A DNA stretch of 60,489 bases, from the NCBI GenBank assembly GCA_047603125.1, contig JBLKOU010000002.1:1-60489 (forward strand). Reading direction: 5' to 3'. This document shows, piece by piece, positions 21,285-60,222 of the stretch. The DNA comes from Candidatus Woesearchaeota archaeon (GTDB taxonomy: Archaea > Nanobdellota > Nanobdellia > Woesearchaeales > DATGWN01). The position numbers were made by a program, and so were the translations under genes. Within the stretch, counting starts at the first letter, position 1, and every line of letters starts with the position of its first letter. The notes under the pieces are model-generated. The model had not been told where the DNA came from. It made no database searches and saw nothing but the letters and a program-made list of their open reading frames with translations.

Positions 21285-21285
21285 A

Positions 21286-25842: not shown

Positions 25843-25863
25843 ATCTTTTTGTTTTTTCTTTTT

Positions 25864-26598: not shown

Positions 26599-26650
26599 AT
26601 GTATGTATTAATGCTTGTTTCTATAAAAATATGCCTTTTTTACTTAACAA

Positions 26651-26660
26651 TATTTATAAA
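26651..26660 (+). promoter_or_regulatory. TATA box for the 26683 gene (leaderless geometry)
   Basis: tatttataaa is centred ~28 nt upstream of the ATG. Confidence 0.45.
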
Positions 26661-26682
26661 TCAGCGACGATAAAAAGAACCT

Positions 26683-27594: not shown

Positions 27595-27648
27595 ATAATA
27601 GATACATTTATAAAATAAAAACGCCAGTTTTTTCAATTAGGTGATATT

Positions 27649-32114: not shown

Positions 32115-32181
32115 TGTCGTGTAGTGGTTGTGTAATGTCACCTATATAAATGTTTCTCTTTGTAAAAAGGGAGATTTTTAT

Positions 32182-32652: not shown

Positions 32653-32713
32653 GTGGTTGTCGTCTTGGCAACACAAAAACTATTTAAATGGTAATTGTGC
32701 TTTTTAAAAGCAT

Positions 32714-35700
32714 ATGGGTACTATTCGGGTGTGGGTTATCGTATTATTATTCTTTCTTACTTCTAGTGTAGTTTTTGCTGGTGGAGTTGGTTCAGTTTCT
32801 TTGAAACCATTTGATGAATGTACTGAGGATGATGATCGGTTAGCATTATTTTATGTTGATAATCGCACGAATGCGCATGTTTGGAGAGATTTGCCTGAAG
32901 GGGCAACGAGCGGGTATGCGGTTTGTTATACAATTCCTGAAGAATTACAAGGTGTAGATGGGTTATTTGAGAAAACAACTGATGGTAATCATTTCATTTT
33001 ACAATTAACTTCTGAAAGTGATGCACACGCGCATGGTCCAGGGGATTGGTTTAGTGTTAATGCGACGAATGAACTGGGTGCGACATTTTATATTCCTTCT
33101 GATTCACAAATAAAAGCGAATGGTGTAACATTAAGTGACACGTGGGTAGATATAGATGAGTTAACTGACGTTTATAATTTATTCGTGATGCGAAATGTAA
33201 TTTTTGCAAATGGGAATGTTCCTTTTTCTGGTAAAACTGCTACTGGAGCGTCTTTTACTTCGCTTGATTTTTCAGGTTCACAAACGTGGATTTTAGGTGC
33301 GACGGATTGGGTTGAGGTAGGTGACAATGCAAATTCACTTTCTAATTCTGTTCCTATTGCGTTTACTGGTTTTGATTGTCGAAGGGAGGGTGCGAATTAC
33401 GGTGATCTTGCAGACGGTGAACTTCGAATCGGTTATTTAGATTCAACAAATCATTTTTCTTTTGATGAAAATGGTGTATATTCGGTAGCTCAAATTATTT
33501 GTACAATTGAAGAACCTGTGCAAATTTGTACGGATGAACAAAAAGCTCAAGGGTTGTGGTATGAGCTGTTGGATGACTTTTCAACTTTACCTGAAGTGGG
33601 AAATAATGTAGCAGTTCGACATGGGACTAGAAGTGATTTATTTGAGACAAATCACCTTCATATAACATTTGATAAAAAAGAAGGATCTAACCCGGACTCG
33701 GTTTCACTTTCTGGTTTGGAAGCATCGGGGGATGGATATTTGGAATTTTATTATTTTCCAGAACAGTCTTTAGCTTTGGATGTAAAAATAAATGGTCAAA
33801 CATATTTTGTAGAGGATCACATAATTGGTTCACTTAATTTGCAGCGACAAGTTACTGGTTCTCCACGAATTGATAGGTGGAATAAAGTGCAGATTTTTGT
33901 TTCGGGAGGTGTTAATTCAATTGAATTCTTATTACCTGAAACGCCGTTAACAAATTTACAACCACAATATGTTTATAGAATAGACGGTTTGAGTTTTCAT
34001 CCTAATAGTGGTCGAAATTATTGCGGCAGCGATGGCGAGTTTAATGCAGAGATATCTGAAGATGCTTGTTCTGCAATTCCTGGTTTGACATGGACGGGCA
34101 ATAGATGTTGCGGGTTACCTGATGATCAAAATTATGTTGATGACAATGGTGTTTGTGTAAATGGTCGAGTTCTCATGGAAGAAAAACCAATAACGAAGGT
34201 AGCTTTTGATGTATTTTATGATGGAAAGTCGCGGCACGTTACGGATTTTTGTTTTGATAATTTGTGTCATATTTCCCTTCCGCGAATAGACGGAGAGGTC
34301 TCAACTATTTCTCGCCCGGGTTGGTTACGTTTTGAAGGAAATGGTGCAAATATTACTCATATTGAGTCCAATACAAAATTGACACTTGATCAAGACATGT
34401 TGTTATTGGTTGATTCTTGGAATTTATCTAAATCTTCTAAAGACGATGGCTGGATTAGAGATATAACTGAACGAGTCATGATTTATGGTTCATTATATGG
34501 GAGAGTAGCTGATTCCGAAGAGCCGGATCGTCACTTTCTTATTGGTGAATATCAATTTTCGGGAGTTGACGTTTATTTTCTAAATGAAGAAGAAGTCGAT
34601 GAACAAGTGGTAGCGGGTTCTGCAGTTCAGGCAAAACTTGCGTATTTGAGAAACAATGAGGCCTATATTTATACTCGCGGTACATTTACCGACCCAAAAT
34701 TTTTAATTGGTGATCAAGAGTGGATTTTAGAACAAGATTCTGTTCAAGATTTCCCTGAACCGATGAGTACATTTTTATCTAATTTTACTATAACGGAAAA
34801 AAATACTTATGTTGTTCCGTCTGATTTCTCACTACCGAATCAAAGACCGATAGATATTTTTTTTCAATATACAACTGAGGATGTAGAAGTGAAAACAATA
34901 CATTTACGGACGCTGGTTGGTTCGCCTACTTCTGGAACGCAAAATTATTTTGCGTTGGTGGAAGATGAGAATTTTATTGTTGTGAATCATACTGATGCAA
35001 ATTATTTGGGTACAAAAGTATTTTTTGTTTTTGGAGAAAACAATGAATTAATACGCACAAAAAGAACTGATAAAACGCACGAGATTGATTTGATTGGAAA
35101 TGAACAAGGTGCAAGAAAAGTTGTTGGTTTTTATTACGATCAATTTGGTAACCCAGTACAAGAAGTTTCGTTGGATTTAGATTCTGGTTCTGTGGAGGAA
35201 AGTTCTGATGATTCCGTTCAATTAGATACACCTATTGAAATTCGAGGGCGCGATGGAACATTTGCAAGATTTGAAGGAACAGAGAATAGTCGTCAAAGTT
35301 ATGATCCAAAACAACTTATAAGAGTAAGTTCAAATATAGCGCAATTTATTTATTCTTCTCGTGGTGGTAATTTAGCACTTCGTGCGTGTATTTCTGAGCC
35401 CGAGCAGTTTTCAGCGTTGAATCCTATGAAAATAGGTGGTGCTTGTCATATTGCATATTTAGATTATCGTTGTGTTCCTCCTGATGTTCTTCCAGGTGAC
35501 GGCACAGGTTTCTTTTTCCGCTATCCTGAGGGTAATGTCGTACCTGCTTCAAAGCCGGAAAATGATGGATCGTCAGCATATCAAATGCATTTTTCACAAG
35601 GTGTAGGAACTGCTTGTTGTGGGCAGGATTCTTGTTGGACGGGTGTGAGTTGTATTGATGATGGCGAAACGCTTGGTCGACACACATGTCTTGCAGGAGA

Positions 35701-36733
35701 GTGGGCACTTGCACAGTTGAAATTTAGTCCGAATGGAAAAGAGAGTAGTTTTTGTTCACAACCAAGTCAGTGTTATGTTGGTAGTTTTGCTGAAAGTGAC
35801 ATGTTTGAAAAAACGTCAACGGGCGGGTTACTTGCAAACAACTGTGTTGAAAATCAAACACGTTTTGGCGATTATATTTGTGCTGATGGTGGTTGGGCTT
35901 CAAGAGAATTTGAGCTGGCAAATTTATTGTTGCATATTGCAGACGTTGAGGACGATGACAAAACATTCCAACTTATTTGTGATACGCCTCGTAACATTTT
36001 AGATAGTATGGAAGTTACTTTGGAAGAATTTTCTGATTTAAGGGCGTATAATGCGTTAATAGTGGGAATGCAACAATCTAATAATGTGCTTTGTAGTAAT
36101 ACGCAAGAATGTATAAAAAAAGCATGTATTTTAAATACAAATCAAAATGAGGTTTCTTTTGGTGTCACAATCCCTGTTCCCTATAATGAATCTGCGGGAA
36201 TTTGGAATTTCTTAGGTTTGAGTTGTAGTGGAAGTGGTTTACAAAAATGTAGTTCCAATGTACTCGGGAATGAGTTTGCAATTCATTATTATCCGCCTCA
36301 ACAACAGTTGATTTTTTCACAGGTTTCTCAAGCGGGAAATATTTTTACACGCTTTATTGAAGCAATAAGAAACTTATTTAGATTACGCTCTGAATTTTTG
36401 ATCAACGATCTGGTGATGCCAAATATGGTTGTAAGTAAAACATATTTGCAGGGCGAGGGGAACGAAGTGTATTATTTTGCAACAGTGCGCGATGTATGGG
36501 ATGATGATTCTAAAAGTACAGACATGGAATTACAAGTTATTTCACACCGGGATTTTTCGAGTGTAGCTGAGGAAGTTGCTAAGCGTCTTACGGGCAATAA
36601 TATTGATTTATCCACGGAACCGGCTACTAACATGACTATCGTTGTCGCTAAATCGAATACTGCAAAAGAAACGATACTGACCCAATGGCCTCATTTCACT
36701 TGGCATCTTGATCCTAAAATTAATTTGGATTAA
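32714..36733 (+). CDS. Large secreted protein (1339 aa), first gene of the giant surface operon
   Basis: Sec-type signal MGTIRVWVIVLLFFLTSSVVFAGG, a long uninterrupted ORF, Cys clusters (e.g. CGSDGEFNAEISEDACSAIPGLTWTGNRCCG) and many N-x-S/T sequons. Confidence 0.85.
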   Translation: MGTIRVWVIVLLFFLTSSVVFAGGVGSVSLKPFDECTEDDDRLALFYVDNRTNAHVWRDLPEGATSGYAVCYTIPEELQGVDGLFEKTTDGNHFILQLTSESDAHAHGPGDWFSVNATNELGATFYIPSDSQIKANGVTLSDTWVDIDELTDVYNLFVMRNVIFANGNVPFSGKTATGASFTSLDFSGSQTWILGATDWVEVGDNANSLSNSVPIAFTGFDCRREGANYGDLADGELRIGYLDSTNHFSFDENGVYSVAQIICTIEEPVQICTDEQKAQGLWYELLDDFSTLPEVGNNVAVRHGTRSDLFETNHLHITFDKKEGSNPDSVSLSGLEASGDGYLEFYYFPEQSLALDVKINGQTYFVEDHIIGSLNLQRQVTGSPRIDRWNKVQIFVSGGVNSIEFLLPETPLTNLQPQYVYRIDGLSFHPNSGRNYCGSDGEFNAEISEDACSAIPGLTWTGNRCCGLPDDQNYVDDNGVCVNGRVLMEEKPITKVAFDVFYDGKSRHVTDFCFDNLCHISLPRIDGEVSTISRPGWLRFEGNGANITHIESNTKLTLDQDMLLLVDSWNLSKSSKDDGWIRDITERVMIYGSLYGRVADSEEPDRHFLIGEYQFSGVDVYFLNEEEVDEQVVAGSAVQAKLAYLRNNEAYIYTRGTFTDPKFLIGDQEWILEQDSVQDFPEPMSTFLSNFTITEKNTYVVPSDFSLPNQRPIDIFFQYTTEDVEVKTIHLRTLVGSPTSGTQNYFALVEDENFIVVNHTDANYLGTKVFFVFGENNELIRTKRTDKTHEIDLIGNEQGARKVVGFYYDQFGNPVQEVSLDLDSGSVEESSDDSVQLDTPIEIRGRDGTFARFEGTENSRQSYDPKQLIRVSSNIAQFIYSSRGGNLALRACISEPEQFSALNPMKIGGACHIAYLDYRCVPPDVLPGDGTGFFFRYPEGNVVPASKPENDGSSAYQMHFSQGVGTACCGQDSCWTGVSCIDDGETLGRHTCLAGEWALAQLKFSPNGKESSFCSQPSQCYVGSFAESDMFEKTSTGGLLANNCVENQTRFGDYICADGGWASREFELANLLLHIADVEDDDKTFQLICDTPRNILDSMEVTLEEFSDLRAYNALIVGMQQSNNVLCSNTQECIKKACILNTNQNEVSFGVTIPVPYNESAGIWNFLGLSCSGSGLQKCSSNVLGNEFAIHYYPPQQQLIFSQVSQAGNIFTRFIEAIRNLFRLRSEFLINDLVMPNMVVSKTYLQGEGNEVYYFATVRDVWDDDSKSTDMELQVISHRDFSSVAEEVAKRLTGNNIDLSTEPATNMTIVVAKSNTAKETILTQWPHFTWHLDPKINLD

Positions 36734-36738
36734 ATCAC

Positions 36739-38358
36739 ATGGCTCTTATGACTGCGCGTGGACAAGTAACTGTTTTTTTAATCATCGGCCTAATTGTTTT
36801 TATGGCATTTGCTTTGTTATTGACATATCAACCGCGAACATCGGTAGAAGATTTATCTCCTGCGGATGCAACGCCTGCAAGAATTGCAGTTGAGACATAT
36901 CTGCGCCAGTGTTTACAGGAAAGTGCGGACACTGCCACGAAAACTATTTTGTCTCAAGGAGGGTTGTGGTTTGAAAGTCAGGGTGGTTCGGATAATGATG
37001 AAAATTTTGATTTTGACAAACCTGTTGTGCTTAGACATGATGTCTTGCCACGTCATAGTCCTCCATATTATCCTCATAATTTAAGTGGTCGATATAATGC
37101 GACGCTAGAAGAGCTTTATATTCATTTTCATGAACAAGGATTATTATTATTTCCATTATTTGGAAGAATTGACCCGAGGGCTGAGTCGGGGAATTTTTAT
37201 TTGCCCCGTCTTTGTGATCTTGAAGGGCCGAATTGGCCTGGCCATACTGATCATGGACGAACGTGTGAGTCAGATGTCTATGATACAATTGGTTCTGTTT
37301 CTTCAATACAAAATAAAATTCAATCATATACGACTGGAATCTTTCAAAACTGTATTGAGAGTTTGAGTGGGCGGGATGCGCCCGTTGCACAATCTATTGC
37401 ACAAGAGAGTTTTATTCATGTTATTTATTCAAACGATGGGGTTGAATATGTGGCAAAGGTTCCAACACAGGTAAATATTTCAGATGTTACGCTTCGATTA
37501 AATGATATTTCCTATACGCAACCTCTGCGAATTAAACCGATGTATAATCTCATTTTTTTTGGTATGCGTGAGGAGACTATTAATGCGAGTTTTATGATTG
37601 AGAATGCAAGCCATTGGGATTCATTGATATATTGTAATTATAATGGAACAAATTCTCTATGTTTATTGCCTGGTTTACAAATAACGCGGGAGAATAAGAC
37701 TTATGAGGACAGACATTATGACTTAATAACAGTTGTAGACACACAAGTTCCGCGCAGAGTGTTTTCTGTTTATTTTGAAAATCGTCCGCCAATAATTGAG
37801 TATCCGTCATATTCGCCATTTGTTGTGCAAGCGGACGAGACATTTAATATAACGCCTCGTATTATTGATCCGGACGGCGATACTGTTTGGACTGTTTTTT
37901 CTCGATATAATGGGTCTGAATGGATAAACGACACTTTATTTCGTTTTAATGAATCCCAATTGTATGAAGAAGGGGATTATTCTTTAGGTTGCCCTGGGAA
38001 TGTGTGTGCGAATTACACTGTTGATGTTTGTGAATTTGCGCAGCTGGGGACGCATAATTTTCGCTTATATGCTGCTGATCGTGGGGGGCCGTATGACTTT
38101 TTTCCGATTGATATTACGGTAAAGCCGGCCGATAACCTGGATAGTTGCTCAGGCTCTGTGTGGGATGCTTGCGCAACAGGTATGAACTCTACTTGTGTTG
38201 AGGTGTTGGAGGGGTATGGTGTTGATTTTAATCCTGCTGATGGAATATTTGAAGGTTGTGATTTAGAAGAGTGTTTAGGTAATTCATGTACTTTGTGGGG
38301 AGGTACAGATGTTCCGTTTCCGCAGCACGGCCAAGCGCTTTTTAACAAATTTTGTTAG
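36739..38358 (+). CDS. Protein with class III (prepilin-like) signal peptide and a Cys-rich C-terminus (539 aa)
   Basis: Starts 5 nt after the previous stop. The N-terminus MALMTARGQVTVFLIIGLIVFMAFALLL is a basic region, then G/Q, then a ~20-residue hydrophobic helix. Confidence 0.8.
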   Translation: MALMTARGQVTVFLIIGLIVFMAFALLLTYQPRTSVEDLSPADATPARIAVETYLRQCLQESADTATKTILSQGGLWFESQGGSDNDENFDFDKPVVLRHDVLPRHSPPYYPHNLSGRYNATLEELYIHFHEQGLLLFPLFGRIDPRAESGNFYLPRLCDLEGPNWPGHTDHGRTCESDVYDTIGSVSSIQNKIQSYTTGIFQNCIESLSGRDAPVAQSIAQESFIHVIYSNDGVEYVAKVPTQVNISDVTLRLNDISYTQPLRIKPMYNLIFFGMREETINASFMIENASHWDSLIYCNYNGTNSLCLLPGLQITRENKTYEDRHYDLITVVDTQVPRRVFSVYFENRPPIIEYPSYSPFVVQADETFNITPRIIDPDGDTVWTVFSRYNGSEWINDTLFRFNESQLYEEGDYSLGCPGNVCANYTVDVCEFAQLGTHNFRLYAADRGGPYDFFPIDITVKPADNLDSCSGSVWDACATGMNSTCVEVLEGYGVDFNPADGIFEGCDLEECLGNSCTLWGGTDVPFPQHGQALFNKFC

Positions 38359-38447
38359 CCGTAATAATTCCTTTGCTTTCCCGTCGGGGAAAATAGAAAA
38401 CTATTTAAAAGAAACTAGGCATTTTTAAACACTAAGAGGGGTCAGCA

Positions 38448-41400
38448 GTGCGTATATTCCTAACAATTTTATTTTTATTCACCATTCTTCTAGTTTCCCC
38501 TGTTTATGCTGATGATGTAAAGTTTGGTTGTTATGTCCATAATTGGGATACGTTTATAGAGACAAACAGCTGTAGTGGTACAACGACATTATTGCAGGAT
38601 TTAGATGCTAGTGAGAAATATGATGAATTAGTTTCTGAATATGAGGCAGATTCCGATGAGTTAAGCGCAAGATTTGCGGCGAATAAATATTGTACTTCTA
38701 CTCAGCGAGAGGATTTTGGAGATGTTGCCGGCGATTTAGCTGAGTTTTGTTCGGGTGCTATTTGTGATTTGGGCGACGGAAGAACAGTGCCAAGACTTTT
38801 TGGTAATTGTAGCGACACGAAGGCTTTTTTTGAAGCGAATCCTGACTCGCTTCCTTCAGACCCAGATCCGGACCCCGACCCCGACCCGGACCCTGATCCA
38901 GACCCTGACCCCGACCCCGACCCGGACCCTGATCCAGACCCTGACCCCGATCCAGATCCAACAGACCCGCAAGTTTGTCAAAATGTCTGTAACTTACAAA
39001 CACATGTGTGCAGTAGCTCAGTTTCTGGCGAATTCAATAATGTTGGGCCCGGCTCTGTTTGTTGCCAACCAGACTACTGTGTAGAAAAGCCTGACGTTGA
39101 TTTGGAATCACGCACAATTTCAGGAAGTGTTGAGCGCCCAGGAAATTTAGAAGGGAGATTATATCAAGTTCGAGCACTACAAACAGATGGAGAATTTGGA
39201 GCGTCGGTCTCTCAAACAGGATCCTCATATGAACTTGAGAATTTATTACCCGGTGTTTATAATATCACTATTACTAATTTTGACAGCGATCCCACGTATA
39301 GAATTGTTGATGTGACTGAAGAAAACAAAACTGGCATTAATTTTAATTTAACAACTGATAATATACCAACCGTTATTGTTACAGATGAAGAAGGGGGGGC
39401 TTTAGGGGGCACATCTGTTGTTGTGATAGGTGGCAGCGTGTCACAAATAACACCTTCCAGTGGAACTGTATATTTGGTTGGGGCAAATTTAGGTAGTTTA
39501 GAATTGTTTATTGTCAAAGACGGTTATATACCGCTGCGACAAACACATGATTTTGGTGAAGAAAATCCATTTACTGCACGATTGCAAACAAAAGATTGTT
39601 TACAGGACGAACCTCCTGCACCGACATATCAACGAACGCCAGGTTCTACGCGATTGAAATTTACGGCATTTACTCCTTGTAATTTAGCTGCAAGCTCTTT
39701 TGTACTTGAACGTTGTTTAGGAGTAAATTGTGATTCGTTTGTAGAAGTGAATCAAACAGCAACACCATTATTAACGGATTCGAGTGCTCAATGGAATCGA
39801 ACATATAATTATCGAATAAAAATTGTTTATGAACAAGATTCAAGTATTGCGTATTCTCCGTCTGTGCAGATATATACGGGGGACACCGTTTGTGAGGGGA
39901 TGTATCAAAATCAGCCCTTTTGCGGGGAAGAAGTGGATGGTAATGTGGGGTATCGATGTTCTAACAACCAGGTTGTAAATTATTATGATACTGATGATTT
40001 TACTTGTGATGAGCCGGGTTTTTGTGTTGAGCGTTTGAATCAAGAAGGTAAATTTTATTTAACTTGTCAACAAGATAATGTTTGTTTAATTCAAGATTTT
40101 GTTCAAAGTCCCTTTGAGCTTTTTACCAGCAAGGACACTTGTTTAGAGAATAGCGATTATCTTTGTTATTTTGATAGAGGAGCAAGTGTTGCTCCGGTAT
40201 GCCAGACGTGTTTTTCACAAATGAAGTGTTCGGATTATCTCACAAGAGACGCATGTCGGGATGATGCCTGTCATGTAGGAAATGTTCAGGATTCTGCATG
40301 TCAATGGCAGGAGTCAATTACTCAAGTCGGTATGGGAACATGTGTGCCTGCACAAGATTTTGCACAGAATAATCCAACTGCTGCGTGTTTACAATGTACT
40401 GGAAGTAGTTGTGATCAAAAAATGTGTGAAGGTTTAGGAGTTTGTACGTATGTGGGGGGTGAGAGTAAACCATGTGTTGCAACATCTGATTTTTACTGTT
40501 CTGCTGTGCAAGATCGCAACATTTGTGAGGATCATGAGTCGTGTTTATGGAACCAGAATAAATGTGTTAAGAATTTTAATGGTCAACCTTGTGAAGCCGA
40601 ATTAGGACACTTGTCACAACATTGTGATGATACAATACCACCAGTAACAACTATTCATATGGATTCGCAGCTAGGCGTTTTTGATTTATATATTATTAAT
40701 TTTAGTGTAATCGATCAAGGTATTGGCGGGTATCCTAATAATCCTCGGGATGATTATACTGAGTTTGTCGAAAAAACAAAACTTTGTTTTATTGATTGTT
40801 TTAATACTGACTTATCTTTTAATTCTGTAAACTGGAAAAAAGCAGTAATTACCACGAATCAAATTTATTTTGAGTTAAATGATTCTTTAGTAAACAGTCT
40901 CAATACTGAAGGTGGCGAATCAATTGTTTATTATTATTCAGTTGATCGTGTGTTAAATAGTGAGGCACATAGTCGACATGATGTAAATAGATTTTATTTT
41001 CGTATTGATAGAACTGCTCCTCAGCTAGAGGTTTTGACAGAAGTTGTCATGGATTACACTGGTAGTCAACAACCCTCTGTTCTCTTTGATATTAAAACAA
41101 CGCATGATACGCGAGCAGATGAGGCGAAAAGAACATCTTGTTCTGTTTCTTTTTCTGACCAAACACAATCATCTAAAAACACATATTTGAGTCGTCATAC
41201 ATTTTTCTTTCCTGAACAAAATGATGGTGTTCGTGATGCAACAATTACTTGTGTTGATGAATTTGGCAATACGAATACGAAAACAGAATCGGTAGAAATT
41301 TGGTCCGATAGTGATATTGAGTGGATTTCTCCTGCGCGTGTTGTTTCAGAGCAAGACCATGATTTAATAATTGAGACTGCAACGCCTGCTGAGTGTAAAT

Positions 41401-50700: not shown

Positions 50701-50730
50701 TGATTTAGGAAACAGTCAAAACACATTTAA

Positions 50731-51273: not shown

Positions 51274-51355
51274 AATATAGGCTTTTTCAAAAAAAGCACG
51301 CAGATTTTACTACAAAGTGTCCTTTTTTCTTTATCAGATGAACTCTAAAAACACA

Positions 51356-51925: not shown

Positions 51926-51992
51926 ACTATCAAGACTCTTTATTTAAAAATGTAGTGGGTTTTCATTCTTTTACTGGTTCGATTTTGTTTAG

Positions 51993-52003
51993 CTTTATAA
52001 ATA
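51993..52003 (+). promoter_or_regulatory. TATA box upstream of the orphan deoxyhypusine synthase 5' fragment
   Basis: ctttataaata is centred ~30 nt upstream of the ATG at 52028. Confidence 0.4.
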
Positions 52004-52027
52004 TGTATTTATTCCAGTCACTAACAC

Positions 52028-52122
52028 ATGGTATATTATCAAATAAAAAAGGCAGTTGATGTGAGCTCTCTTGCAAAAATTCAAGGGGTGGATCTTGAAA
52101 AAGCACATGATGTGCATAGTTT
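52028..52122 (+). repeat. 95-bp direct repeat, left copy: orphan duplicate of the deoxyhypusine synthase 5' end
   Basis: atggtatattatcaaataaaaaaggcagttgatgtgagctct...gatgtgcatagttt equals 53490-53584 with 2 mismatches. Here the reading frame terminates after ~37 codons. Confidence 0.85.
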
Positions 52123-52227
52123 GACGGGAATAAGTAAAAAATGAAAAAGGGAATTATTTATGTAATGATAACTGGCGTCTCTGGACTAAAAAAATGATTA
52201 AAATATATCATATTGAGAGTAATTAAG

Positions 52228-53242
52228 ATGGCTAAAAATATTAGAGATACAGAAAATACTATAATCATTTATGAAAATAACGAAGGAAAAACAACTATCT
52301 CTGTAAAAATAGACGGAGAAACAGTTTGGCTTACACAAGCGCAAATGGTGGAGTTATTTAATTCAAGTAAAGCAAATATTAGTGAACACATAAAAAATAT
52401 TTATAGTGAAGGAGAATTATTGCCAGAATCAACTGTTCGCAAATTCCGAACAGTTCAAAGAGAAGGAAATAGAGATGTTTCAAGAGAGATAGAGCACTAT
52501 AATTTAGATATGATTATTTCGCTTGGGTATCGAATCAAATCGTCAATTGCCACTCGCTTTAGACAATGGGCAACGGCTCGCTTAAAAGAATATATTGTCA
52601 AAGGCTTTTCTATTGATGACGAAAAGTTACAAAATATCGGTGGAGGGAATTACTGGAAAGAACTATTAGATAGAATACGAGATATCCGTAGTAGTGAAAA
52701 AGTATTATATCGGCAAGTTTTGGATTTATATGCTACAAGTATTGATTATAACCCGAAAAGTTCTGAATCAATTCAATTCTTTAAGACAGTACAAAATAAA
52801 CTTCATTATGCTGTAAATAAACAAACTGCTGCTGAGACTATTTATTCTCGCGCTGATGCACAAAAAGAATTTATGGGTCTTACAAACTTTCAAGGAGCGA
52901 TTCCTACAAAATCGGATATAGCTATTGCTAAAAATTATCTTGAAAAAGATGAGCTATTTAGATTAAATCGCATGGTTTCGGCTTTTTTCGATTTAGCGGA
53001 AATAAAAGCACAAGAACATGTGAAAATGTATATGAAAGATTGGGTTTTAGAACTTGATACATTTGTTGAGATATATGGTAAAGGAAAATTAGCAGGAGCA
53101 GGTCTTGTTAGTCACAGCATTAAAGAAGGCAGAAGTAGAGTATAAAAAATATCAAGTTAAAACACTTTCACCAGTTGAAAAAGATTATTTAGATACCATT
53201 AGAAATTTAGAGAAAAAAATTAAAAAGAAGGTAAAAAAGTGA
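52228..53242 (+). pseudogene. rhuM: RhuM-family protein gene with a C-terminal frameshift
   Basis: Strong RhuM pattern (VWLTQAQMVELF...NISEHIKNIY.EGEL...VRKFR.VQ.EG.R.V.R..EHYNLDMIISLGYR..S..ATRFRQWAT). The frame ends at 53145 (..VSHSIKEGRSRV*), but the family-typical tail ALKKAEVEYKKYQVKTLSPVEKDYL..* continues in another frame to 53242. Confidence 0.8.
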
Positions 53243-53385
53243 CGTGGTTAGTAATGCTAATCAGTTGAGATTGGTCGTAGAAGATGGAAAAAAGCGACTT
53301 ACAAATGTTGCAAATATTGAGTAAATTTTCAGGCTTATTAAGAGTTTATCAGGGATACCTAGCTTTCTCGTTTTCTGGGTTTGAA
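53240..53385 (+). pseudogene. Remnant of a DinD/BRO-N-like gene
   Basis: One frame reads NANQLRLVVEDGKKRLTNVANIE*IFRLIKSLSGIPSFLVFWV*. This resembles the DGKK.LTD.A....L.RLIQSIPS....F..WL segment of DinD-like proteins, but with stops and no start. Confidence 0.3.
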
Positions 53386-53456
53386 AAACCTGTGTTTTTG
53401 AATTAACTTCGAGCAGCGAACTTTTGTTATTTATGTACACACTAAGAAATGATGAA

Positions 53457-53469
53457 TATTTATAAATAA
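53457..53469 (+). promoter_or_regulatory. TATA box for the intact deoxyhypusine synthase gene (leaderless geometry)
   Basis: atatttataaata is centred ~27 nt upstream of the ATG at 53490. Confidence 0.45.
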
Positions 53470-53489
53470 CTTCGTGTTTTCTTAATCTT

Positions 53490-54485
53490 ATGGTATATTA
53501 TCAAATAAAAAAGGCAGTTGATGTGAGCTCTCTAGCAAAAATTCAAGGGATGGATCTTGAAAAAGCACATGATGTGCATAGTTTTATAGAGAGTTTTTCA
53601 ACAATGGGTCTGCAGGCAAGCGAGCTTGCAAAAGCAATTGATATTGTCACGATGATGCGCCGAGAGCAGGCAGCCATCTATCTTTCTTTTACCTCAAATA
53701 TGGTCAGTAGCGGTGTGAGAGAAGTAATAACCTACCTTGTCAAGCACAAACATATACACATTATCAGCACATCTGCAGGCGGCGTGGAAGAAGATGCACT
53801 CAAAGCATATGCGCCATTTCGATTGGGGTCTTTTTCAGTTTCGGGGGAATGGTTATTTAATCAAGGATTAAGTCGTATTGGAAATATTTACACGACAACT
53901 GACCATTATGCATATTTTGAACAATTTATGCAATCGGTGTTTGCAAAATTATACGAGCAGCAGAAAAAAACAGGTCAATGTGCAACGCCAAGTGTAATTG
54001 CACGAATGATTGGGCAAGAGCTTGAAGCACATCCTGATTTTGATCATGAACAGTCATACTTATATTGGGCATATAAACAAAACATCCCAGTGTATTGTCC
54101 GGGAATTATGGATGGTTCTATTGGAGATTTATTATACTTTTTCAAACAAAAACATCCTGACTTTCTTATTGATGTAACTGGTGATCACAAACAACTCATT
54201 GATACAACACTTTCGTTTGATAAGACGGGAGCAATTATTTTAGGTGGCGGCATTGCTAAGCACTATGTTCTTAATGCCAATATTTTTCGCGAAGGATTGG
54301 ATTATTCAGTGTATATAACCACGGCTGTTGAGTTTGATGGTTCTGATTCAGGAGGAAGTGGCCAAGAAGCGATAAGTTGGGCAAAGTTACAACTGCGCTC
54401 ACCCCATGTTCGTGTTACTTGTGATGCGTCCATTGCAGCACCTTTATTGATTTATGGTGCATTTGTTCCAAAAAAAGAAGCGTAG
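53490..54485 (+). CDS. dys: Deoxyhypusine synthase
   Basis: Characteristic SNMVSSG, TSAGGVEED, GGGIAKH and EFDGSDSG...EAISW motifs across 331 aa. Confidence 0.95.
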   Translation: MVYYQIKKAVDVSSLAKIQGMDLEKAHDVHSFIESFSTMGLQASELAKAIDIVTMMRREQAAIYLSFTSNMVSSGVREVITYLVKHKHIHIISTSAGGVEEDALKAYAPFRLGSFSVSGEWLFNQGLSRIGNIYTTTDHYAYFEQFMQSVFAKLYEQQKKTGQCATPSVIARMIGQELEAHPDFDHEQSYLYWAYKQNIPVYCPGIMDGSIGDLLYFFKQKHPDFLIDVTGDHKQLIDTTLSFDKTGAIILGGGIAKHYVLNANIFREGLDYSVYITTAVEFDGSDSGGSGQEAISWAKLQLRSPHVRVTCDASIAAPLLIYGAFVPKKEA

Positions 54486-54489
54486 ATAC

Positions 54490-55176
54490 TTACGCATGTT
54501 CGTGATGTTCTTTTAATTTATCACTGAGTTTTTGAATATTAATATTTGCAAATAATGTTTGTAATTTTGGATTGTTTTCAATGATGCGCGCGAACCCTTG
54601 TACATTTGCAACAAGAAGTTTTTCCATATCAGGATTGCTATCAAAATATGCTGCAATTTTTCTTTTTTGCTCATCGCTAATGGATGGGCTTGGCGTTTGT
54701 GGTTTTGGAGGTACTACTTGAGACTGTTCTGGTTGTTTGTGTGTTTGAGTCGGTGTACTTTGTAGGTGCTGGCGAACAATGTCTGTTGCAATGCGCTCCA
54801 CCTGTTTTTGTGTGACAAATTGCACAGGATTCCAAATTTCAATATATTTTTCAAGTGTTTTGACTTCATTTTGTTTTGCTGTTTGTTGCAATTCTTGAAT
54901 GATTTTGGTCATGTCTGATTTGATAGATTTAATTTGGCGCGCAAGTTCATCTTTTTCTTCAAAGAAGAGTTCTAAATCCTTTTTGATTTTTTTGAGATCT
55001 TCAAGCGTGTTTTGTTCGTGCAAATCCATTTTTCGACGCATATTACTTTGCACTTCTTCAACCATACGTAGCCTTCGCGAAACACTTGCCATTTGTTGAG
55101 CCATCGCAGGTGCATTTTGAGGCGGAGGCGGATTTTTTTGTCCTCCAAATGAGAGATTGAGTGAATTATTTGCCAT
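54490..55176 (-). CDS. Coiled-coil protein with Pro/Gln-rich segments
   Basis: 228-aa ORF with an N-terminal QKNPPPPQNAPAMAQQ, a long coiled coil, a second P/Q-rich linker and a small C-terminal helical domain. Confidence 0.6.
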   Translation of the reverse strand: MANNSLNLSFGGQKNPPPPQNAPAMAQQMASVSRRLRMVEEVQSNMRRKMDLHEQNTLEDLKKIKKDLELFFEEKDELARQIKSIKSDMTKIIQELQQTAKQNEVKTLEKYIEIWNPVQFVTQKQVERIATDIVRQHLQSTPTQTHKQPEQSQVVPPKPQTPSPSISDEQKRKIAAYFDSNPDMEKLLVANVQGFARIIENNPKLQTLFANINIQKLSDKLKEHHEHA

Positions 55177-55221
55177 AGGGTATGTAAGGCACGGCGTTGT
55201 TTAAAAATCTTGCTAAGAATT

Positions 55222-55350
55222 GGTTAGCGACAATAAAAAATTATAATGCCTTGGCGCATAAGTAGAATTTCGAGGAGTTGCGCGCCGGAGAAATTCGCAA
55301 GATGAACCGCTGTTCCGAAATCGCCGCATTATAATTGGAATTCGCCGTTA
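55222..55350 (+). repeat. Intergenic repeat family A, divergent copy 3
   Basis: Same length and architecture as 47-180. Shared blocks are gttagcg, ccttggcg and ctgt..gaaatcgcc. The long stem is retained through compensatory changes (ttataatgc / gcattataa versus gcataac / gttatgc). Confidence 0.6.
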
Positions 55351-55499
55351 GGTACTTAATGAGAAAAATATGTTTTTTAAACATAGAAAAAGCGAATTCT
55401 AAATGTGAAAAACACACGGATTTTCACATAATTTGCTTCTGTCTAAAACTAAATTGGTTCTTGGTGTGTTTGTGGAATTTTTATCTTCGGGTTTTTTTC

Positions 55500-55650
55500 A
55501 AAAAAGAGCACGCAGATTTGGCTCAAGAGTCCTACTTTGCGAATAGTGCGAAAATTCAACTACATCTTTTCAGATTTCCATCCTCAAGTTTGAAAGAAGC
55601 TTTCAAACAATCACCGAATTTTCTGGCTTTACTGCAAGGTGCTCTTTTTT
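55500..55650 (+). repeat. Intergenic repeat family B, copy 3
   Basis: Aligns over its full length with 16447-16595, with the same termini and central hairpin. A ~40-nt 5' fragment of the family also occurs at ~51290-51333. Confidence 0.8.
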
Positions 55651-55786
55651 CTTATGTACCGTATGAGTGTGTATATTTAGGGGTTTTCTTTCAAGTCAAA
55701 CCACACGCAATCTTTATAAATGTCGTTACGTCAAATATTTTTAAGAAAGAGGGTGTGGGTCAGGTTTTTTTGCACATAATAGAAGT

Positions 55787-58045
55787 ATGGTACAATATGA
55801 AATCATTCGTGAAGGAGAAGAGATACTTTTACGAGTCGATTTTTCTCAAACATATACTATTCCAACCGTTGAGGACGATCCTCGAACGATGGAGCTTGTT
55901 GTCAAATTCTTACAAGAAGTTAAGCACGCAACAAAAATTATTATCAATCAACAACGAGATTATGAGTATGATTATGAACAAACGCATATGCTCTTAGAAG
56001 TTGCGCAATTACAAATTCGTCTCGTTGATTTTCCCATTAATCCGCTCGTTTCTACAAATCGTCTTATTAGTCAACATTATGTTCAATTGCAACAAATAAT
56101 TCATCAAAAAGTTCGCTCTGATCCCATCGGTGCATATGTGTCATTGATTCGCCTTATCCGTCATACACATATGAAAAAGCCCCATGGTGTGGGTCAAGTA
56201 AAAGATGCATATGCGTATTTTTGTACAATCTTAGAGCAGATAAAACAAGAGTTTGAGAAAATACAATTAATTAAAATTAGCCAAGATCAAATAGAAACCT
56301 ATGACGAGTCCCATCGTGATATTTATCGCCAATTTTTCACACCTACTATTAAGCCTGATTTTATGTTAACAAAAATTATGGCAAGCTACCCAAAAAACGC
56401 AAAGGAAGTTGATTCCTTTATGATTGGCAAAACCCAAGTTACCATTTTTGAGCTTGCAGACAATGTTCAATACATGTATCATATTATGCCGCCAGAGTTT
56501 CAGCTCAGTGATGAACTCTACTCATTATTAGAAGATGCGCGCGCAGTCTTGTCAGAGCACAAACCACAAAAAGAAGAGTTTACTGATCCAGAGCGAATGC
56601 GAGAGGTGTTTTTTAATGTTGGGTTTGATTTAATACAAGAAATTGCAAATGAAAAACAAGTGCAACTTAGCAAAACTGAGCGAACAATGCTGACGAATAT
56701 TCTCATTCGTTACACAGTTGGTTTTGGTTTAATTGAAATTTTACTTGAAGATGAGCAGATGCAAGATATTTCCATAAATAGTCCACAAGGTGCAAATCCC
56801 ATTTACATTGTTCATGGAAAGTATGATGAGTGTATTACTAACATTATGCCAACAAAAGGCGAGGCTGAAAGCTGGGCGACAAAATTGCGATTGATTTCTG
56901 GTCGAAGTTTAGATGAGGCAGATCCTATTTTAGATACGGAGCTGGAATTTCCAAATGCGAGTGTTCGTGTTTCAGCAATTACGTATCCACTCAACCCTTC
57001 AGGTTTGGCGTTTTCCTTTCGTCGACATCGCGATAAACCATGGACGCTGCCATTATTTATGAAGTACAAGATGATTAATGCTCAAGCTGCTGGTCTATTG
57101 AGTTTTTTCATTGATGGTTCGCGAACAATGTTAATTGCGGGAACAAGAAGTAGCGGGAAATCGTCATTTTTATCAGCTATTATGATAGAAATTATGCGTC
57201 GGTATAGAATGATTACAATCGAAGATACATTGGAGCTGCCAACAAAACAAATGCGTGAATTAGGTTTTAATATTCAACCGATGAAAGTTGCATCTGCTCT
57301 GGGTGCAAAAACAAGTGAAATGGATGCAAGTGATGGTATTCGCTCAACACTACGATTAGGTGACTCGGCACTTATCGTTGGGGAGGTGCGAAGTACTGAA
57401 GCAAAGGCATTGTATGAAGCCATGCGTGTTGGCGCGGCTGCAAATGTAGTTGCAGGAACAATTCATGGTGATAGCCCGTATGGTATTTTTGATCGTGTGG
57501 TCAATGATATTGGCGTTCCAAAAACATCGTTTAAAGCAACGGATATTATTATTATCGCAAACCCTATTCGCTCAGCAGATGGGTTGCATAAATATAGGCG
57601 CGTGCTCTCGATAACAGAAGTGCGCAAAGATTGGGATGATGATCCGCTCAAAGAACATGGGTTTGTTGAATTGATGCGATATAATCCTCTGACAGATCAA
57701 TTAGAGCCAACGGATGCACTCATCGGAGGCGATTCTGATTCTCTCAAAGATATTGCAGGTCGTGTTCGCGAGTTTGCAGGAAACTGGGATGCCATTTGGC
57801 AAAATGTACAACTTCGCGGTCAATTAAAAGAGTTATTGGTGCAAGCAAGTACAGATGCAAATATTCCTGAATTATTAGAAGCGCCTTTTGTTATTTCTTG
57901 TAATGATGAATATCATCGTTTATATGAGAAGGTTCGACAAAACAAACGCTTTGAGAATGAGGAGCAAATAAATCAAGCAATCTTAGAACAATTTGAGCAA
58001 TGGTTACAAAGGCAGGTTCGTGCATGGCAGAAATCGATAAATTAA
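55787..58045 (+). CDS. Type II/IV secretion-family ATPase (archaeal FlaI/PilB-like) with a long N-terminal extension
   Basis: Walker A AGTRSSGKSS, Asp box ITIEDTLEL, Walker B ALIVGEVR and His box AGTIHGD, in 752 aa. Confidence 0.92.
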   Translation: MVQYEIIREGEEILLRVDFSQTYTIPTVEDDPRTMELVVKFLQEVKHATKIIINQQRDYEYDYEQTHMLLEVAQLQIRLVDFPINPLVSTNRLISQHYVQLQQIIHQKVRSDPIGAYVSLIRLIRHTHMKKPHGVGQVKDAYAYFCTILEQIKQEFEKIQLIKISQDQIETYDESHRDIYRQFFTPTIKPDFMLTKIMASYPKNAKEVDSFMIGKTQVTIFELADNVQYMYHIMPPEFQLSDELYSLLEDARAVLSEHKPQKEEFTDPERMREVFFNVGFDLIQEIANEKQVQLSKTERTMLTNILIRYTVGFGLIEILLEDEQMQDISINSPQGANPIYIVHGKYDECITNIMPTKGEAESWATKLRLISGRSLDEADPILDTELEFPNASVRVSAITYPLNPSGLAFSFRRHRDKPWTLPLFMKYKMINAQAAGLLSFFIDGSRTMLIAGTRSSGKSSFLSAIMIEIMRRYRMITIEDTLELPTKQMRELGFNIQPMKVASALGAKTSEMDASDGIRSTLRLGDSALIVGEVRSTEAKALYEAMRVGAAANVVAGTIHGDSPYGIFDRVVNDIGVPKTSFKATDIIIIANPIRSADGLHKYRRVLSITEVRKDWDDDPLKEHGFVELMRYNPLTDQLEPTDALIGGDSDSLKDIAGRVREFAGNWDAIWQNVQLRGQLKELLVQASTDANIPELLEAPFVISCNDEYHRLYEKVRQNKRFENEEQINQAILEQFEQWLQRQVRAWQKSIN

Positions 58046-60222
58046 AACGAAAATACGAAAAGCAAATTGAGCAGCAGTTAAAGAATAAAATCTCTTCAAC
58101 GCAGCTCTCGCAAGCAACCGTGGGCGAAGATGCAAATAGTCGAGTCTCCAGTGAGTATACTGCGTTTAAACAAGCAAATATTCGAACCACCATGTCTTTG
58201 TACGAGCAAGCTTGTGACTTTTTTGGAAAGAATTTACCTATTTCTCCAGATAAAACAAAAAAACCACAAATGCAGGCAGATATTCAAACATGCCATTTAC
58301 AAATCACTCCTGAGGGTGCAACGTCATTTGCGATTGTTGTGCCACTCCTCTTTATTATGATTTCAGGCATGTTTGCGTTTTTACTCACGCAAAGTGTTGG
58401 AGTGGTTTTTTTATTTTTTAGTCTGGGAGCAATTATGATTTTTCCATTGCTAAATCTTCCTTCTTATCTAGCGCAGAACTTTCGTATGAAAGCAAGTAAT
58501 CAGATGATCCTTTCTGTTTTTTATATTGTCACGTATATGCGCCATACGCCAAATTTAGAGCGTGCAATTGAATTTGCATCCCAGCATTTGAATGCACCGC
58601 TTTCTCTTGATCTCAAAAAAGTGATTTGGGATGTTGAAACGCAAAAATTTTCAAGTATTTTTGATTCACTGGAAAACTATTTAGAAACATGGCGGGATTA
58701 TAATGATGAATATGTAGAGAGTATGCATGTTGTTGTGAGTTCTTTATATGAGTCTTCAGAAAAGAAGCGACAAGAACTCCTCGATAAAGCGCTTGATTTA
58801 ATTTTGGAAGAAACATACGATAAGATGCTCCACTATGCACATAATTTGCAATCACCAATTACGGCACTTCATATGTTAGGTGTGGTTTTACCAATTTTAG
58901 GGCTAATCATGCTTCCCCTTGTTGTGAATTTTATGGATAATGTGCAATGGTATTATATCATGCTTGCGTATAACATTATTTTGCCCATTGCAATTTATGT
59001 GATGGGTCGACGAATATTAAGTTCACGACCATCTGGATACGGGGGAATGGAGCTTGATGAAAGTAATCCTGAAGTTCAGCGTTTGCTAAAACAAAAAATA
59101 AAACTTTTGGGTGTTTCGCTTCCCTTCACTCCAGCACAAATAGGGATAACGATTGCTGTTGTTTTTTGTTTTATAGGAATTTCACCGGTTCTTTTGCATT
59201 GGGCGGGCGCATCCGACATCGGATTTGGTTTGGAGCGAGATGATTCGAGCGTTGGTTGTGGATACCGATTCTGTTTACTTGATTATGAACAAACACCTCA
59301 AGGTGTTAAAGGACCATTTGGTTTGGGTGCAACGATTTTGAGTTTGTTTATACCGCTTGGTTTGGCGTTTGGGTTAGGGCTATATTATCAATTACGTTAT
59401 AATGCACTCATGGAGCTTCGCGTTGACACACAAAAATTAGAGGGTGAGTTTACGGGTGCGTTATTTCAATTATCAAATCGACTTGGTGATGGGTTACCTC
59501 CGGAGATTGCGTTTTCTCGTGTGGCAGAAAATATGCCAAACTCTCGCAGTGGGAAGTTTTTTCAAACAATTTCTGGTAATATTCAAAAACTGGGCATGGG
59601 TGTTGCGGAGGCTATCTTTGATCCTAAAATAGGAGCTTTGACATATTATCCGTCTAATTTGATTGAAAGCTCAATGAAAATTCTCACACAGAGTGCAAAG
59701 AAAGGACCAAGTGTTGCATCAAATGCCGTGTCAAATGTTGCGCGCTATATTCGAGAAATGGGACGTGTCAATGAACGATTGCGAGATTTAATGGCTGAAG
59801 TTATCTCATCTATGAAATCACAAATTGGTTTTTTAACACCTGTTATTTCTGCCATTGTTATCGGAATTACCTCAATGATTACGAGTATTTTGCGCGAGTT
59901 AAAAAATCAGTTAGAAGGTGTAGATGGGGCAGGTGATCCGGCTGCAGGTGCGGTTGGTGGTGGGTTGAACTTTTTGGATATGTTTGGCGAGGGTATTCCT
60001 GCGTTTTATTTTCAAATTATTATTGGTATTTATGTGGTGCAAGTGGTGTTTTTACTTTCAGTGCTCATTAATAGTATTCAAAACGGAATAGATCCGGTTA
60101 ATGAAAAATATATGCTGGGGAAAAATTTGATTGCTTCTACTTCATTATACATTGGACTTTCACTCGTGGTAATTATTATCTTTAATATTGTCGCGACGTC
60201 TATATTGACGAGTATGGTGTAA
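58024..60222 (+). CDS. FlaJ/TadC-like (T2SS-F family) polytopic platform protein
   Basis: Overlaps the ATPase 3' end by 22 nt. It has two similar halves, each a cytoplasmic helical region followed by TM helices. The call rests on architecture and on adjacency to the ATPase. Confidence 0.7.
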   Translation: MAEIDKLKRKYEKQIEQQLKNKISSTQLSQATVGEDANSRVSSEYTAFKQANIRTTMSLYEQACDFFGKNLPISPDKTKKPQMQADIQTCHLQITPEGATSFAIVVPLLFIMISGMFAFLLTQSVGVVFLFFSLGAIMIFPLLNLPSYLAQNFRMKASNQMILSVFYIVTYMRHTPNLERAIEFASQHLNAPLSLDLKKVIWDVETQKFSSIFDSLENYLETWRDYNDEYVESMHVVVSSLYESSEKKRQELLDKALDLILEETYDKMLHYAHNLQSPITALHMLGVVLPILGLIMLPLVVNFMDNVQWYYIMLAYNIILPIAIYVMGRRILSSRPSGYGGMELDESNPEVQRLLKQKIKLLGVSLPFTPAQIGITIAVVFCFIGISPVLLHWAGASDIGFGLERDDSSVGCGYRFCLLDYEQTPQGVKGPFGLGATILSLFIPLGLAFGLGLYYQLRYNALMELRVDTQKLEGEFTGALFQLSNRLGDGLPPEIAFSRVAENMPNSRSGKFFQTISGNIQKLGMGVAEAIFDPKIGALTYYPSNLIESSMKILTQSAKKGPSVASNAVSNVARYIREMGRVNERLRDLMAEVISSMKSQIGFLTPVISAIVIGITSMITSILRELKNQLEGVDGAGDPAAGAVGGGLNFLDMFGEGIPAFYFQIIIGIYVVQVVFLLSVLINSIQNGIDPVNEKYMLGKNLIASTSLYIGLSLVVIIIFNIVATSILTSMV

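Follow-up and report, generated by a model that had tools for sequence, protein, structure and literature searches.

A candidate type IV filament locus with pilin-like and giant surface proteins in a Candidatus Woesearchaeota archaeon

Two conserved type IV pilus-like loci have been described across cluster-2 DPANN, including Woesearchaeota; both contain coiled-coil proteins, CpaF and TadC, and filament proteins (FlaF, PilA) are listed for locus 1 only, not for locus 2 (Hamm et al. 2024, PMC11291902). Here we analyse a stretch of 60,489 nucleotides from a Candidatus Woesearchaeota archaeon (contig JBLKOU010000002.1 of assembly GCA_047603125.1, positions 1 to 60,489 of the forward strand), referred to as the window, in which seven genes, designated A to G, encode pilin-like and very large surface proteins and lie close to genes for a secretion ATPase, a TadC/FlaJ-like platform protein and two coiled-coil proteins. 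All together, the data lead us to think, with reasonable though by no means full confidence, that this region encodes a type IV filament (T4F) or pilus-like system that is conserved in Woesearchaeota and Nanoarchaeia.

Described systems and the present locus

Archaeal loci have been modelled with minor pilins, a large signal-peptide-bearing 'adhesin' and a large, C-terminally anchored 'S-layer-like' protein that conserves cysteines (Makarova, Koonin and Albers 2016, PMC4858521). System 2, as defined by Sivabalasarma and Albers (2026, bioRxiv 10.64898/2026.04.22.720090), has one platform gene, several pilins, large adhesin-like proteins and an ATPase whose N-terminus is extended, and subsystem 4G of the same study has giant partners rich in immunoglobulin (Ig) folds. 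In M. maripaludis, the five experimentally studied substrates of the peptidase EppA carry the sites RAQI (EpdA), KGQV, KGQV, KGQL and KGQI, and the Gln at position +1 is required (PMC4371748).

The components of the present locus are listed below, with lengths in amino acids (aa); in the N-terminal sequences, here and in the text, a slash marks the processing-type site.

A: 32714-36733, plus strand, 1339 aa, secreted protein
B: 36739-38358, plus strand, 539 aa, pilin-like protein
C: 38448-48185, plus strand, 3245 aa, GTG start, membrane-anchored giant
D: 48178-48699, plus strand, 173 aa, pilin-like protein (MNKKG/FDANQMFIY...)
E: 48696-49718, plus strand, 340 aa, pilin-like protein (MNKQG/FIAISFHWLF...), the largest of D-G
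F: 49718-50206, plus strand, 162 aa, pilin-like protein (MKKA/QIRMFES...)
G: 50203-50700, plus strand, 165 aa, pilin-like protein (MKA/QSELLGF...)
cc189: 51356-51925, minus strand, cytoplasmic coiled-coil protein, no hydrophobic segment, weak coiled-coil Pfam matches only
cc228: 54490-55176, minus strand, second cytoplasmic coiled-coil protein, no transmembrane (TM) segment, divergent from the ATPase gene
Secretion ATPase: 55787-58045, plus strand, 752 aa, GspE/CpaF/FlaI superfamily, N-terminal extension of ~280 aa
TadC/FlaJ-like platform protein: 58000-60222, plus strand, 740 aa, polytopic, at least 7 hydrophobic segments, divergent

The nine open reading frames (ORFs) reported in an earlier note on this DNA were all recovered at their coordinates. 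In the best-supported reading, that of a type IV filament system, the motor module would by its gene arrangement correspond to the published DPANN coiled-coil/CpaF/TadC locus. Specifically, as in locus 2 of Hamm et al. (2024), two cytoplasmic coiled-coil proteins are encoded beside a CpaF-like ATPase and TadC; unlike locus 2 as described there, the window and the related loci L004, L039 and L038/L042 add a five-member pilin-like set and giant surface proteins beside the coiled-coil genes. The earlier note had called the apparatus uncharacterised. As a kind it is not, the module being published for DPANN (PMC11291902) and similar archaeal loci, with minor pilins and large Ig-rich adhesin-like or S-layer-like partners, being described in PMC4858521 and bioRxiv 10.64898/2026.04.22.720090.

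In its architecture the window resembles System 2, with an extended ATPase, one platform, five pilin-like genes and the large proteins A and C. With the loci modelled in 2016, System 2 and subsystem 4G it shares one large signal-peptide protein, one large protein with a C-terminal TM segment, conserved cysteines and Ig-rich folds. It departs from them in its lineage, Nanoarchaeia, in accessory proteins that match no described family, in the far larger size of the anchored protein family (2600-4900 aa) and in its coiled-coil partners, which stand in for MinD-like ATPases.

The M. maripaludis Epd pilus shares with the window the [KR][GA]/Q type of site, found in B (RGQV), F (KAQI) and G (KAQS), as well as the presence of several minor pilins and adhesin-like large proteins in one locus. 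In contrast to the window, which has a single 740-aa platform and no peptidase nearby, the Epd locus (System 1) has two platform genes flanking the ATPase and a dedicated EppA-type peptidase. In addition, the Epd pilins show no sequence similarity to the window proteins, in which the Glu is not at +5.

In bacteria, minor pilins form tip and priming complexes with PilY1, as in the type IVa pili (T4aP) of Myxococcus and Pseudomonas, or assemble as GspH-I-J-K in the type II secretion system (T2SS), and modular pilins are represented by S. sanguinis PilB. The window recalls the PilY1 and GspHIJK sets in having four non-paralogous small pilin-like proteins, one of them much larger, encoded with a large non-pilin surface protein, and B, which joins a signal motif to a separate adhesin-like beta-sandwich, may be of the PilB kind. 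It shows, however, no sequence or demonstrated structural homology to these bacterial complexes, A lacks PilY1/DUF2341 domains and the archaeal envelope has a single membrane.

In conclusion, the general plan of pilus machinery combined with big Ig-rich adhesin-like proteins is already established in other archaea, and the locus is a lineage-specific form of it rather than a system of a new kind. Apparently new are the protein families themselves, all of which are annotated 'hypothetical', both the size of the anchored giant and its cytoplasmic tail, and the fact that candidate pilins can be assigned to the coiled-coil/ATPase/TadC module of DPANN.

Conserved gene order and linkage to the motor

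The gene order (A)-B-C-D-E-F-G is found again in seven or more divergent contigs of Woesearchaeota/Nanoarchaeia. Since identities are only 20-35%, the order has been retained over a deep divergence, and the conservation in relatives on which the earlier note had made its proposal depend is therefore present. In the contigs of B relatives, homology was detected by tblastn at 20-27% identity (E 1e-8 to 1e-48). The loci are given below in gene order, with lengths in aa; L004, L038/L042, L039 and L041 were found via ATPase loci and a degenerate-pattern scan for F in JGI metagenomes.

L047: replication factor C (RFC) gene ... PRC gene, 176, A-like 955, B 628, giant 3241, D-like
L049: PRC gene, 198, A-like 1001, B 517, giant 3097, D-like
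L046: A-B-C, in the same metagenome-assembled genome (MAG) as ATPase locus L003
L048: A-B-C
L053: B 603, giant 2607, 174, 350, 171 (B-C-D-E-F)
L052: B-fusion 1259, 2028, 1052, 161, 331 (B-giant-large-D-E)
L054: A-like 1422 ... B 546, giant 4938
L004 and L039: giant C-terminus-D-E-F-G
L041: D-E-F
L038/L042: D-E-F-G-cc189

In L053, the three proteins encoded after the giant have nearly the same sizes as D, E and F.

The ATPase matched Pfam T2SSE at 56.7 bits, above the cut-off of 24.9 (E 2e-15), with the T2SSE core beginning at about residue 280-386 of 752, and its PDB matches were A. fulgidus GspE (2OAP, 5.5e-27), CpaF (1e-22) and FlaI (1.5e-14). Walker A (GTRSSGKSS), Asp box, Walker B (IVGEVR) and His box are intact by eye. 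The FlaI/PilB-type ATPase that the earlier note had placed ~5 kb downstream of the operon is thereby borne out. This ATPase is 45-70% identical to its counterparts on 37 MAG contigs, of which nearly all bear the label Woesearchaeota, Nanoarchaeia or Nanoarchaeota; in 27 of these 37 loci cc228, and in 24 of them cc189, is encoded immediately upstream of the ATPase (tblastn). Nine of the contigs (L001, L002, L004, L007, L012, L017, L020, L028 and L037), whose ATPase-TadC genes are 52-70% identical to those of the window, are labelled 'uncultured Methanosarcinales archaeon' or, in the case of L037, 'Bdellovibrionales bacterium'; probably, they are DPANN contigs that carry a wrong taxonomic label or were mis-binned.

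Operon and motor are joined by a chain of adjacencies, in which cc189 forms the bridge. G lies within 5 kb of the ATPase in three lineages (the window, L004 and L039), where D-G stand beside the coiled-coil/ATPase/TadC module, in agreement with the linkage proposed earlier. The cc189 gene directly follows G in L004 and L038/L042 and is one gene away in L039, and cc189-cc228-ATPase-TadC are contiguous in 24-27 of the 37 Woesearchaeota loci. L039 appears as a compact version of the window, with giant-D-E-F-G, a 261-aa protein, cc189, cc228 and the ATPase within 6.4 kb, while in L004 the ATPase-TadC pair is inverted and lies about 3 kb from the operon. In the window, positions 50869-54485, between the operon with cc189 and cc228 with the ATPase, hold a 134-aa ORF, the gene of a RhuM-family 'virulence protein' (52213-53145, Pfam 4.5e-100) and that of deoxyhypusine synthase (53490-54485); because these are absent from the compact relative L039, a local insertion or rearrangement is suggested. 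This adjacency chain is the main evidence supporting the view that operon A-G and the motor would work together.

Additional indications come from distant relatives of the motor. In L024 (19875-22099), L025 (9759-11717) and L030 (16224-22079), distant ATPase-TadC genes are followed by tandem pilins of 116-136 aa with the motif M..K[GA]QGLP, which are candidate major pilins for this motor family, and by pilin-like proteins of 325-650 aa. Since distant ATPase relatives precede K[GA]QGLP pilins, the motor family is associated with pilins carrying Gln at +1.

Two further features of the motor block can be recorded. The cc189 orthologues share a small conserved N-terminal helical domain of ~45 aa (..G(L/M)S.NQI.Q.LQ..G....IF.A..), after which come a linker rich in Pro, Gln and Met and the coiled coil. 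The 610 nt that separate the divergent genes of cc228 and the ATPase (55177-55786), an unusually long distance for this compact genome, contain no convincing ORF and no Rfam match; divergent promoters or a small RNA that escaped recognition may lie here.

Proteins encoded by the operon and its surroundings

The earlier note had described the junctions of the seven genes as uniformly tight. This holds for the 5-nt gap between A and B and for the overlaps of 8 nt (C-D, provided that D starts at the conserved MNKKGFDANQ, position 48178), 4 nt (D-E), 1 nt (E-F, TAATG with the F start at 49718, or 19 nt using an upstream ATG) and 4 nt (F-G), but not for B and C, which are separated by a spacer of 89 nt. 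Within the spacer are the TATA-like motif AAAACTATTTAAA and, as ribosome-binding site, GAGGGG. The same TATA/BRE-like (BRE, B recognition element) AAAACTATTTAAA is found upstream of both A (32676-32688) and C (38398-38410) and, since the motif upstream of A recurs in the B-C spacer, two promoters, for A-B and C-G, probably serve the genes rather than a single seven-gene transcript. The ORF of C is not a chance event, the probability of 3245 open codons being about 1e-103 at 7% stop codons per random codon.

A topology scan assigned to each of B, D, E, F and G exactly one hydrophobic segment, which is N-terminal and follows [KRQ][GA]. Processing-type sites in B (RG/QV), F (KA/QI) and G (KA/QS) are conserved across all orthologues, and that of F is of the same type as RAQI of EpdA (PMC4371748). 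At the level of these motifs, the description of B, F and G as pilin-like proteins with a class III-type signal is supported. Profile-profile comparison detected no paralogy among D, F, G and B, and only the N-terminal helices of F and G align, weakly; such a lack of paralogy is typical of minor-pilin sets.

B is modular: a class III-type signal (MALMTARG/QVTVF) is followed by an alpha/beta domain, a beta-sandwich of cadherin/Ig-like type and a Cys-rich tail. A full HMMER scan retrieved 113 relatives at E<=1e-3, and all the named ones are annotated 'hypothetical protein'. In an alignment of 29 sequences, ~22% identical, the invariant columns number 13 and include Gln9 (+1); G, A or S, preceded by K/R, always occupies position -1, and a DPDED motif is conserved. 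The prepilin-type N-terminus attributed to this protein in the earlier note is thus supported by a [KR][GAS]-Gln site like those of the EppA substrates, with the Gln invariant in the family. An AlphaFold2 (AF2) model from the 29 sequences (pLDDT 71.6, pTM 0.70) shows, in order, a TM helix (5-29), a break, a second helix (41-72), the alpha/beta domain and the C-terminal beta-sandwich (residues ~350-462, pLDDT about 70-90). The top Foldseek matches were cadherin EC repeats and the SraP and Siglec adhesin domains (E about 3e-5); they come from the C-terminal beta-sandwich only and are partial, hence their low TM-scores. These beta-sandwich matches and the conserved DPDED, taken with the modelled fold, suggest that B may be an adhesive module grafted onto a pilin-like anchor.

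The small proteins D-G differ in how closely they follow this pattern. F orthologues (L004, L038-L045, L053) have the most conserved N-terminal helix of the set and the common motif K[KRH][AG]Q[IVL][KR]..E[ST]I. G orthologues have in common K[AG]Q[ST]E.LGF and four conserved Cys, and G shows a weak N-terminal match to the haloarchaeal family DUF7289. D orthologues (L004, L039, L041, L042, L047, L049, L052, L053) conserve KKG; within the clade of the window their site reads KKG/F[DE]A.Q, and in the distant L052 and L053 it reads NKKG/Q. E orthologues (L004, L039, L041, L042, L052, L053) conserve FHWLF, FNWIF or FTWIF and a C-terminal SCPxxY; the site is [KRQ].[GA]/...FHWLF, with MEKG/Q in the distant orthologue from L052. 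In a word-index homology search, E retrieved only itself and F one homologue. Therefore, of the four small prepilin-like proteins of the earlier note, F and G stand with conserved sites, while D and E are looser and E, with 340 aa, is not really small.

A has a single N-terminal hydrophobic segment, corresponding to a Sec-type signal, no membrane anchor and many Cys residues; it gave no Pfam, NCBIfam or PDB sequence match. Its orthologues, 20-25% identical by tblastn (E 1e-8 to 1e-17), immediately precede B in L046, L047, L048 and L049; in L054 the orthologue is located near B. The family keeps the Cys-rich regions and, at the extreme C-terminus (window 36600-36733), a W.xLTxxLR motif. No Pfam hit to a PilY1 beta-propeller or DUF2341 domain was obtained at E<=0.1 in A, B or C. 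A is accordingly listed as a candidate secreted adhesin or accessory protein.

C has the topology of a type I membrane protein, with an N-terminal signal peptide, one TM segment at residues 3080-3110 and a low-complexity cytoplasmic tail of 135 aa. It contains at least 7 copies of a two-Cys unit of ~70 aa, with (PD)n linkers. Orthologues of 2607-4938 aa follow B in L047, L049, L052, L053 and L054, the L052 counterpart being split into two proteins; all keep the single C-terminal TM segment and a basic low-complexity cytoplasmic tail of 130-300 aa, in which a short amphipathic helix (..LK.ALQ.RL..; window 47700-48185) is conserved. This helix and the W.xLTxxLR motif of A are possible docking elements, to judge from their conservation. 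Orthologues of C match CarboxypepD_reg (49.5 bits) and Big_13 (35.6 bits) above the Pfam cut-off, and fn3 weakly. The 'Ig-repeat' giant of the earlier note is therefore upheld in part, by the two-Cys repeats and by these orthologue matches, but C itself gave only a weak CarboxypepD_reg match (Pfam). A beta-sandwich repeat fibre would be a fair description of what its repeats indicate. A word-index homology search with C scored 0 of 8000 candidates, probably owing to the low-complexity (PD)n repeats.

The operon is preceded by two genes whose membership of the system is uncertain.

PRC-barrel gene: 31851-32141, minus strand, upstream neighbour, PRC Pfam E 3e-9
174-aa cytoplasmic ORF: 32128-32652, plus strand, upstream neighbour, weakly conserved

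At the same position, L047 and L049 encode a PRC protein with 82-89% identity to that of the window, and L053 likewise has a PRC gene upstream.

Elsewhere, the window (GC content 32-42%) encodes the archaeal replication proteins DNA polymerase D (PolD) large and small subunits, RFC small subunit and Cdc6/Orc1, as well as deoxyhypusine synthase and a proteasome-activating ATPase; scans for tRNA genes and Rfam families found nothing in it, and one of its proteins, looked up by exact sequence, had no database record. A DPANN origin is supported by the 45-70% identity of the ATPase to Woesearchaeota/Nanoarchaeia loci and by the presence of PolD, RFC, Cdc6 and deoxyhypusine synthase. The PolD large subunit, DP2 (1356-5129, minus strand), carries an intein (Intein_splicing, residues 850-1004). 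A second envelope cluster of uncharacterised genes (19581-28605) encodes membrane proteins of 567, 786 and 218 aa and three paralogous lipoprotein-like proteins (24657-25577, 26683-27594 and 27649-28605) whose signal peptide ends in Cys; proteins of this cluster had no Pfam match and no tblastn match among the fetched loci. A mobile element or defence island was considered and rejected, since only a single RhuM-family gene is present and the flanks are housekeeping genes. A DNA-uptake (Com-like) pilus was likewise discarded, as ComEC and a DNA-binding component are missing and nothing speaks in its favour.

Interpretation and alternative explanations

In the T4F interpretation, which we consider more probable than the alternatives discussed below, the region would consist of three linked blocks: a motor (ATPase, TadC-like protein and two coiled-coil proteins), its substrates (B and D-G) and surface proteins (A and C). 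According to their computed topology, B and D-G would insert into the membrane via a single N-terminal helix. A class III signal peptidase encoded elsewhere would then, as the motifs suggest, cleave after [KR][GAS], so that position +1 is Gln or Phe. The TadC/ATPase motor would, by analogy with GspHIJK and FimU-PilVWX/PilY1, extract the pilin-like proteins and stack them into a short filament or a minor-pilin-type tip or priming complex, to which B, given its predicted fold, may supply an adhesive head in the manner of the modular pilins of S. sanguinis. A and C would be expressed together as partners, A perhaps as a non-pilin adhesin of the PilY1 kind. With its beta-sandwich ectodomain of about 3050 aa, C may be a long anchored fibre or an envelope protein, and the filament would work through it or beside it. 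More speculatively, the conserved cytoplasmic tail of C could contact the coiled-coil proteins. Attachment to surfaces or host cells is the likely biological role, considering the lineage and the types of domain. That the pilin-like proteins present the giant as an adhesin, and that the structure binds hosts, as the earlier note had suggested, would go beyond these observations.

Several observations weigh against this interpretation. D and E of the window lack Gln at +1, and E has Gln in place of Lys/Arg at -2. Searches of Pfam, NCBIfam and PDB with B, D-G and their orthologue sets found no pilin family, only weak N-terminal matches to DUF7289/DUF7263, and the AF2 model of F (two sequences), which would be consistent with a pilin in having a helix at 3-57 followed by 4 beta strands, is unreliable (pLDDT 46). 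Neither a G.GD[VIAL]K motif nor an A24 match indicative of a class III signal peptidase was found in the window or the 54 fetched loci, and no short major pilin of the K[GA]QGLP type occurs in any frame of the window. The platform protein had no PDB match and reached only 23.3 bits with T2SSF, just below the cut-off of 25.2 (E 6.5e-5), with 4 of 15 orthologues matching at E<=0.01; the FlaJ/TadC-like assignment made in the earlier note is thus sustained by position, the gene adjoining the ATPase in 31 of 37 loci, and falls short by score. L001, the closest ATPase relative with full flanks (70%), has cc228-ATPase-TadC but no D-G within 10 kb, so that the physical linkage of D-G to the motor is not universal. 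Moreover, 18 of the 37 ATPase loci encode, upstream of cc189, where the clade of the window has D-G, two or three unrelated multi-TM proteins of ~200 aa, paralogous to one another. As regards the missing pilin-family match, it carries little weight, because the short, canonical-looking QGLP pilins of the relatives likewise go unrecognised by Pfam; the role of major pilin could be filled by one of D-G or by a gene elsewhere. The multi-TM proteins themselves (L014, 6681-8472; L005, L020 and 15 more) have the N-terminal motif GIYDVVLPFLLVFT, belong to no Pfam family and are absent from the window.

Some of the same observations would be expected if the genes formed an envelope module unrelated to the motor, with C as an S-layer-like or main surface protein, A as a second envelope protein, B and D-G as type II anchored helpers that fold, glycosylate or tether them, and the ATPase nearby by coincidence. 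A signal peptide combined with a C-terminal TM segment, as in C, is typical of many archaeal S-layer proteins; the absence of a pilin family match and of a peptidase or major pilin nearby fits this view, and so do the motor without D-G in L001 and the location of A-B-C (L046) and the ATPase (L003) on different contigs of MAG.35. Positive-inside charge alone, however, cannot explain the invariant Gln after G/A/S in B or the K[AG]Q of F and G. Chance is also hard to invoke for the adjacency of G and cc189 in four lineages and of cc189-cc228-ATPase in at least 24 loci, and relatives of the same ATPase adjoin canonical-looking +1-Gln pilins, all of which leaves this explanation unlikely. Slightly deeper doubt attaches to a pseudopilus or bindosome-like device, in which B and D-G would form a short membrane-proximal pseudopilus that exports, positions or threads A and C, or opens the S-layer. 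Four small and one large non-paralogous pilin-like proteins, with no obvious abundant major pilin, do resemble the GspH/I/J/K set, A has only a Sec signal and must reach the surface, and some large T4F-linked proteins have been suggested to prime the cell wall for filament passage (Sivabalasarma and Albers, bioRxiv 10.64898/2026.04.22.720090). Nevertheless, archaea have no outer membrane, and hence no secretin-type barrier calling for a piston, B bears an adhesin-like cadherin/Ig module, and the gene for a major pilin may lie outside the locus, as it does in Haloferax and Methanococcus (PMC4371748).

A divergent archaellum (motility) locus is the least credible of the explanations, with hardly any chance of being correct. 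FlaI was the best NCBIfam match of the ATPase by E-value (3.9e-36) and Woesearchaeota express archaellins (PMC11606122), but the FlaI score of 124.9 bits lies far under the equivalog cut-off of 550, the match to TadA is also far below its equivalog cut-off, and PDB ranks A. fulgidus GspE and CpaF above FlaI. No archaellin and no FlaF/G/H/C/D/E was found among the ORFs of the window, as the earlier note had observed for flagellins and FlaF/G/H. With no archaellins and an ATPase that is not a FlaI equivalog, the archaellum is effectively refuted. A more ambitious possibility, which we find improbable though well short of implausible, is a dedicated host-contact organelle in which the coiled-coil/T4F motor would be physically coupled to the conserved cytoplasmic tail of C; here C might form a fibre of more than 100 nm from about 30 beta-sandwich domains, the pilin-like proteins would make up the base or tip of this fibre, and their ATP-driven assembly and disassembly would deploy or retract a cadherin-like adhesin so as to capture host cells.

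How DPANN cells recognise and hold their hosts is largely unknown, and the DPANN-wide coiled-coil/CpaF/TadC locus had no assigned filament subunits. The window and its relatives provide concrete conserved candidates: the B family with its 113 relatives, four further pilin-like families and two giants that are genomically tied to the motor. The sequences of A-G could seed profile models for annotating DPANN surface systems. If the host-contact organelle proved to be the true reading, the DPANN-wide coiled-coil/CpaF/TadC locus would have gained its own, hitherto missing, set of filament proteins.

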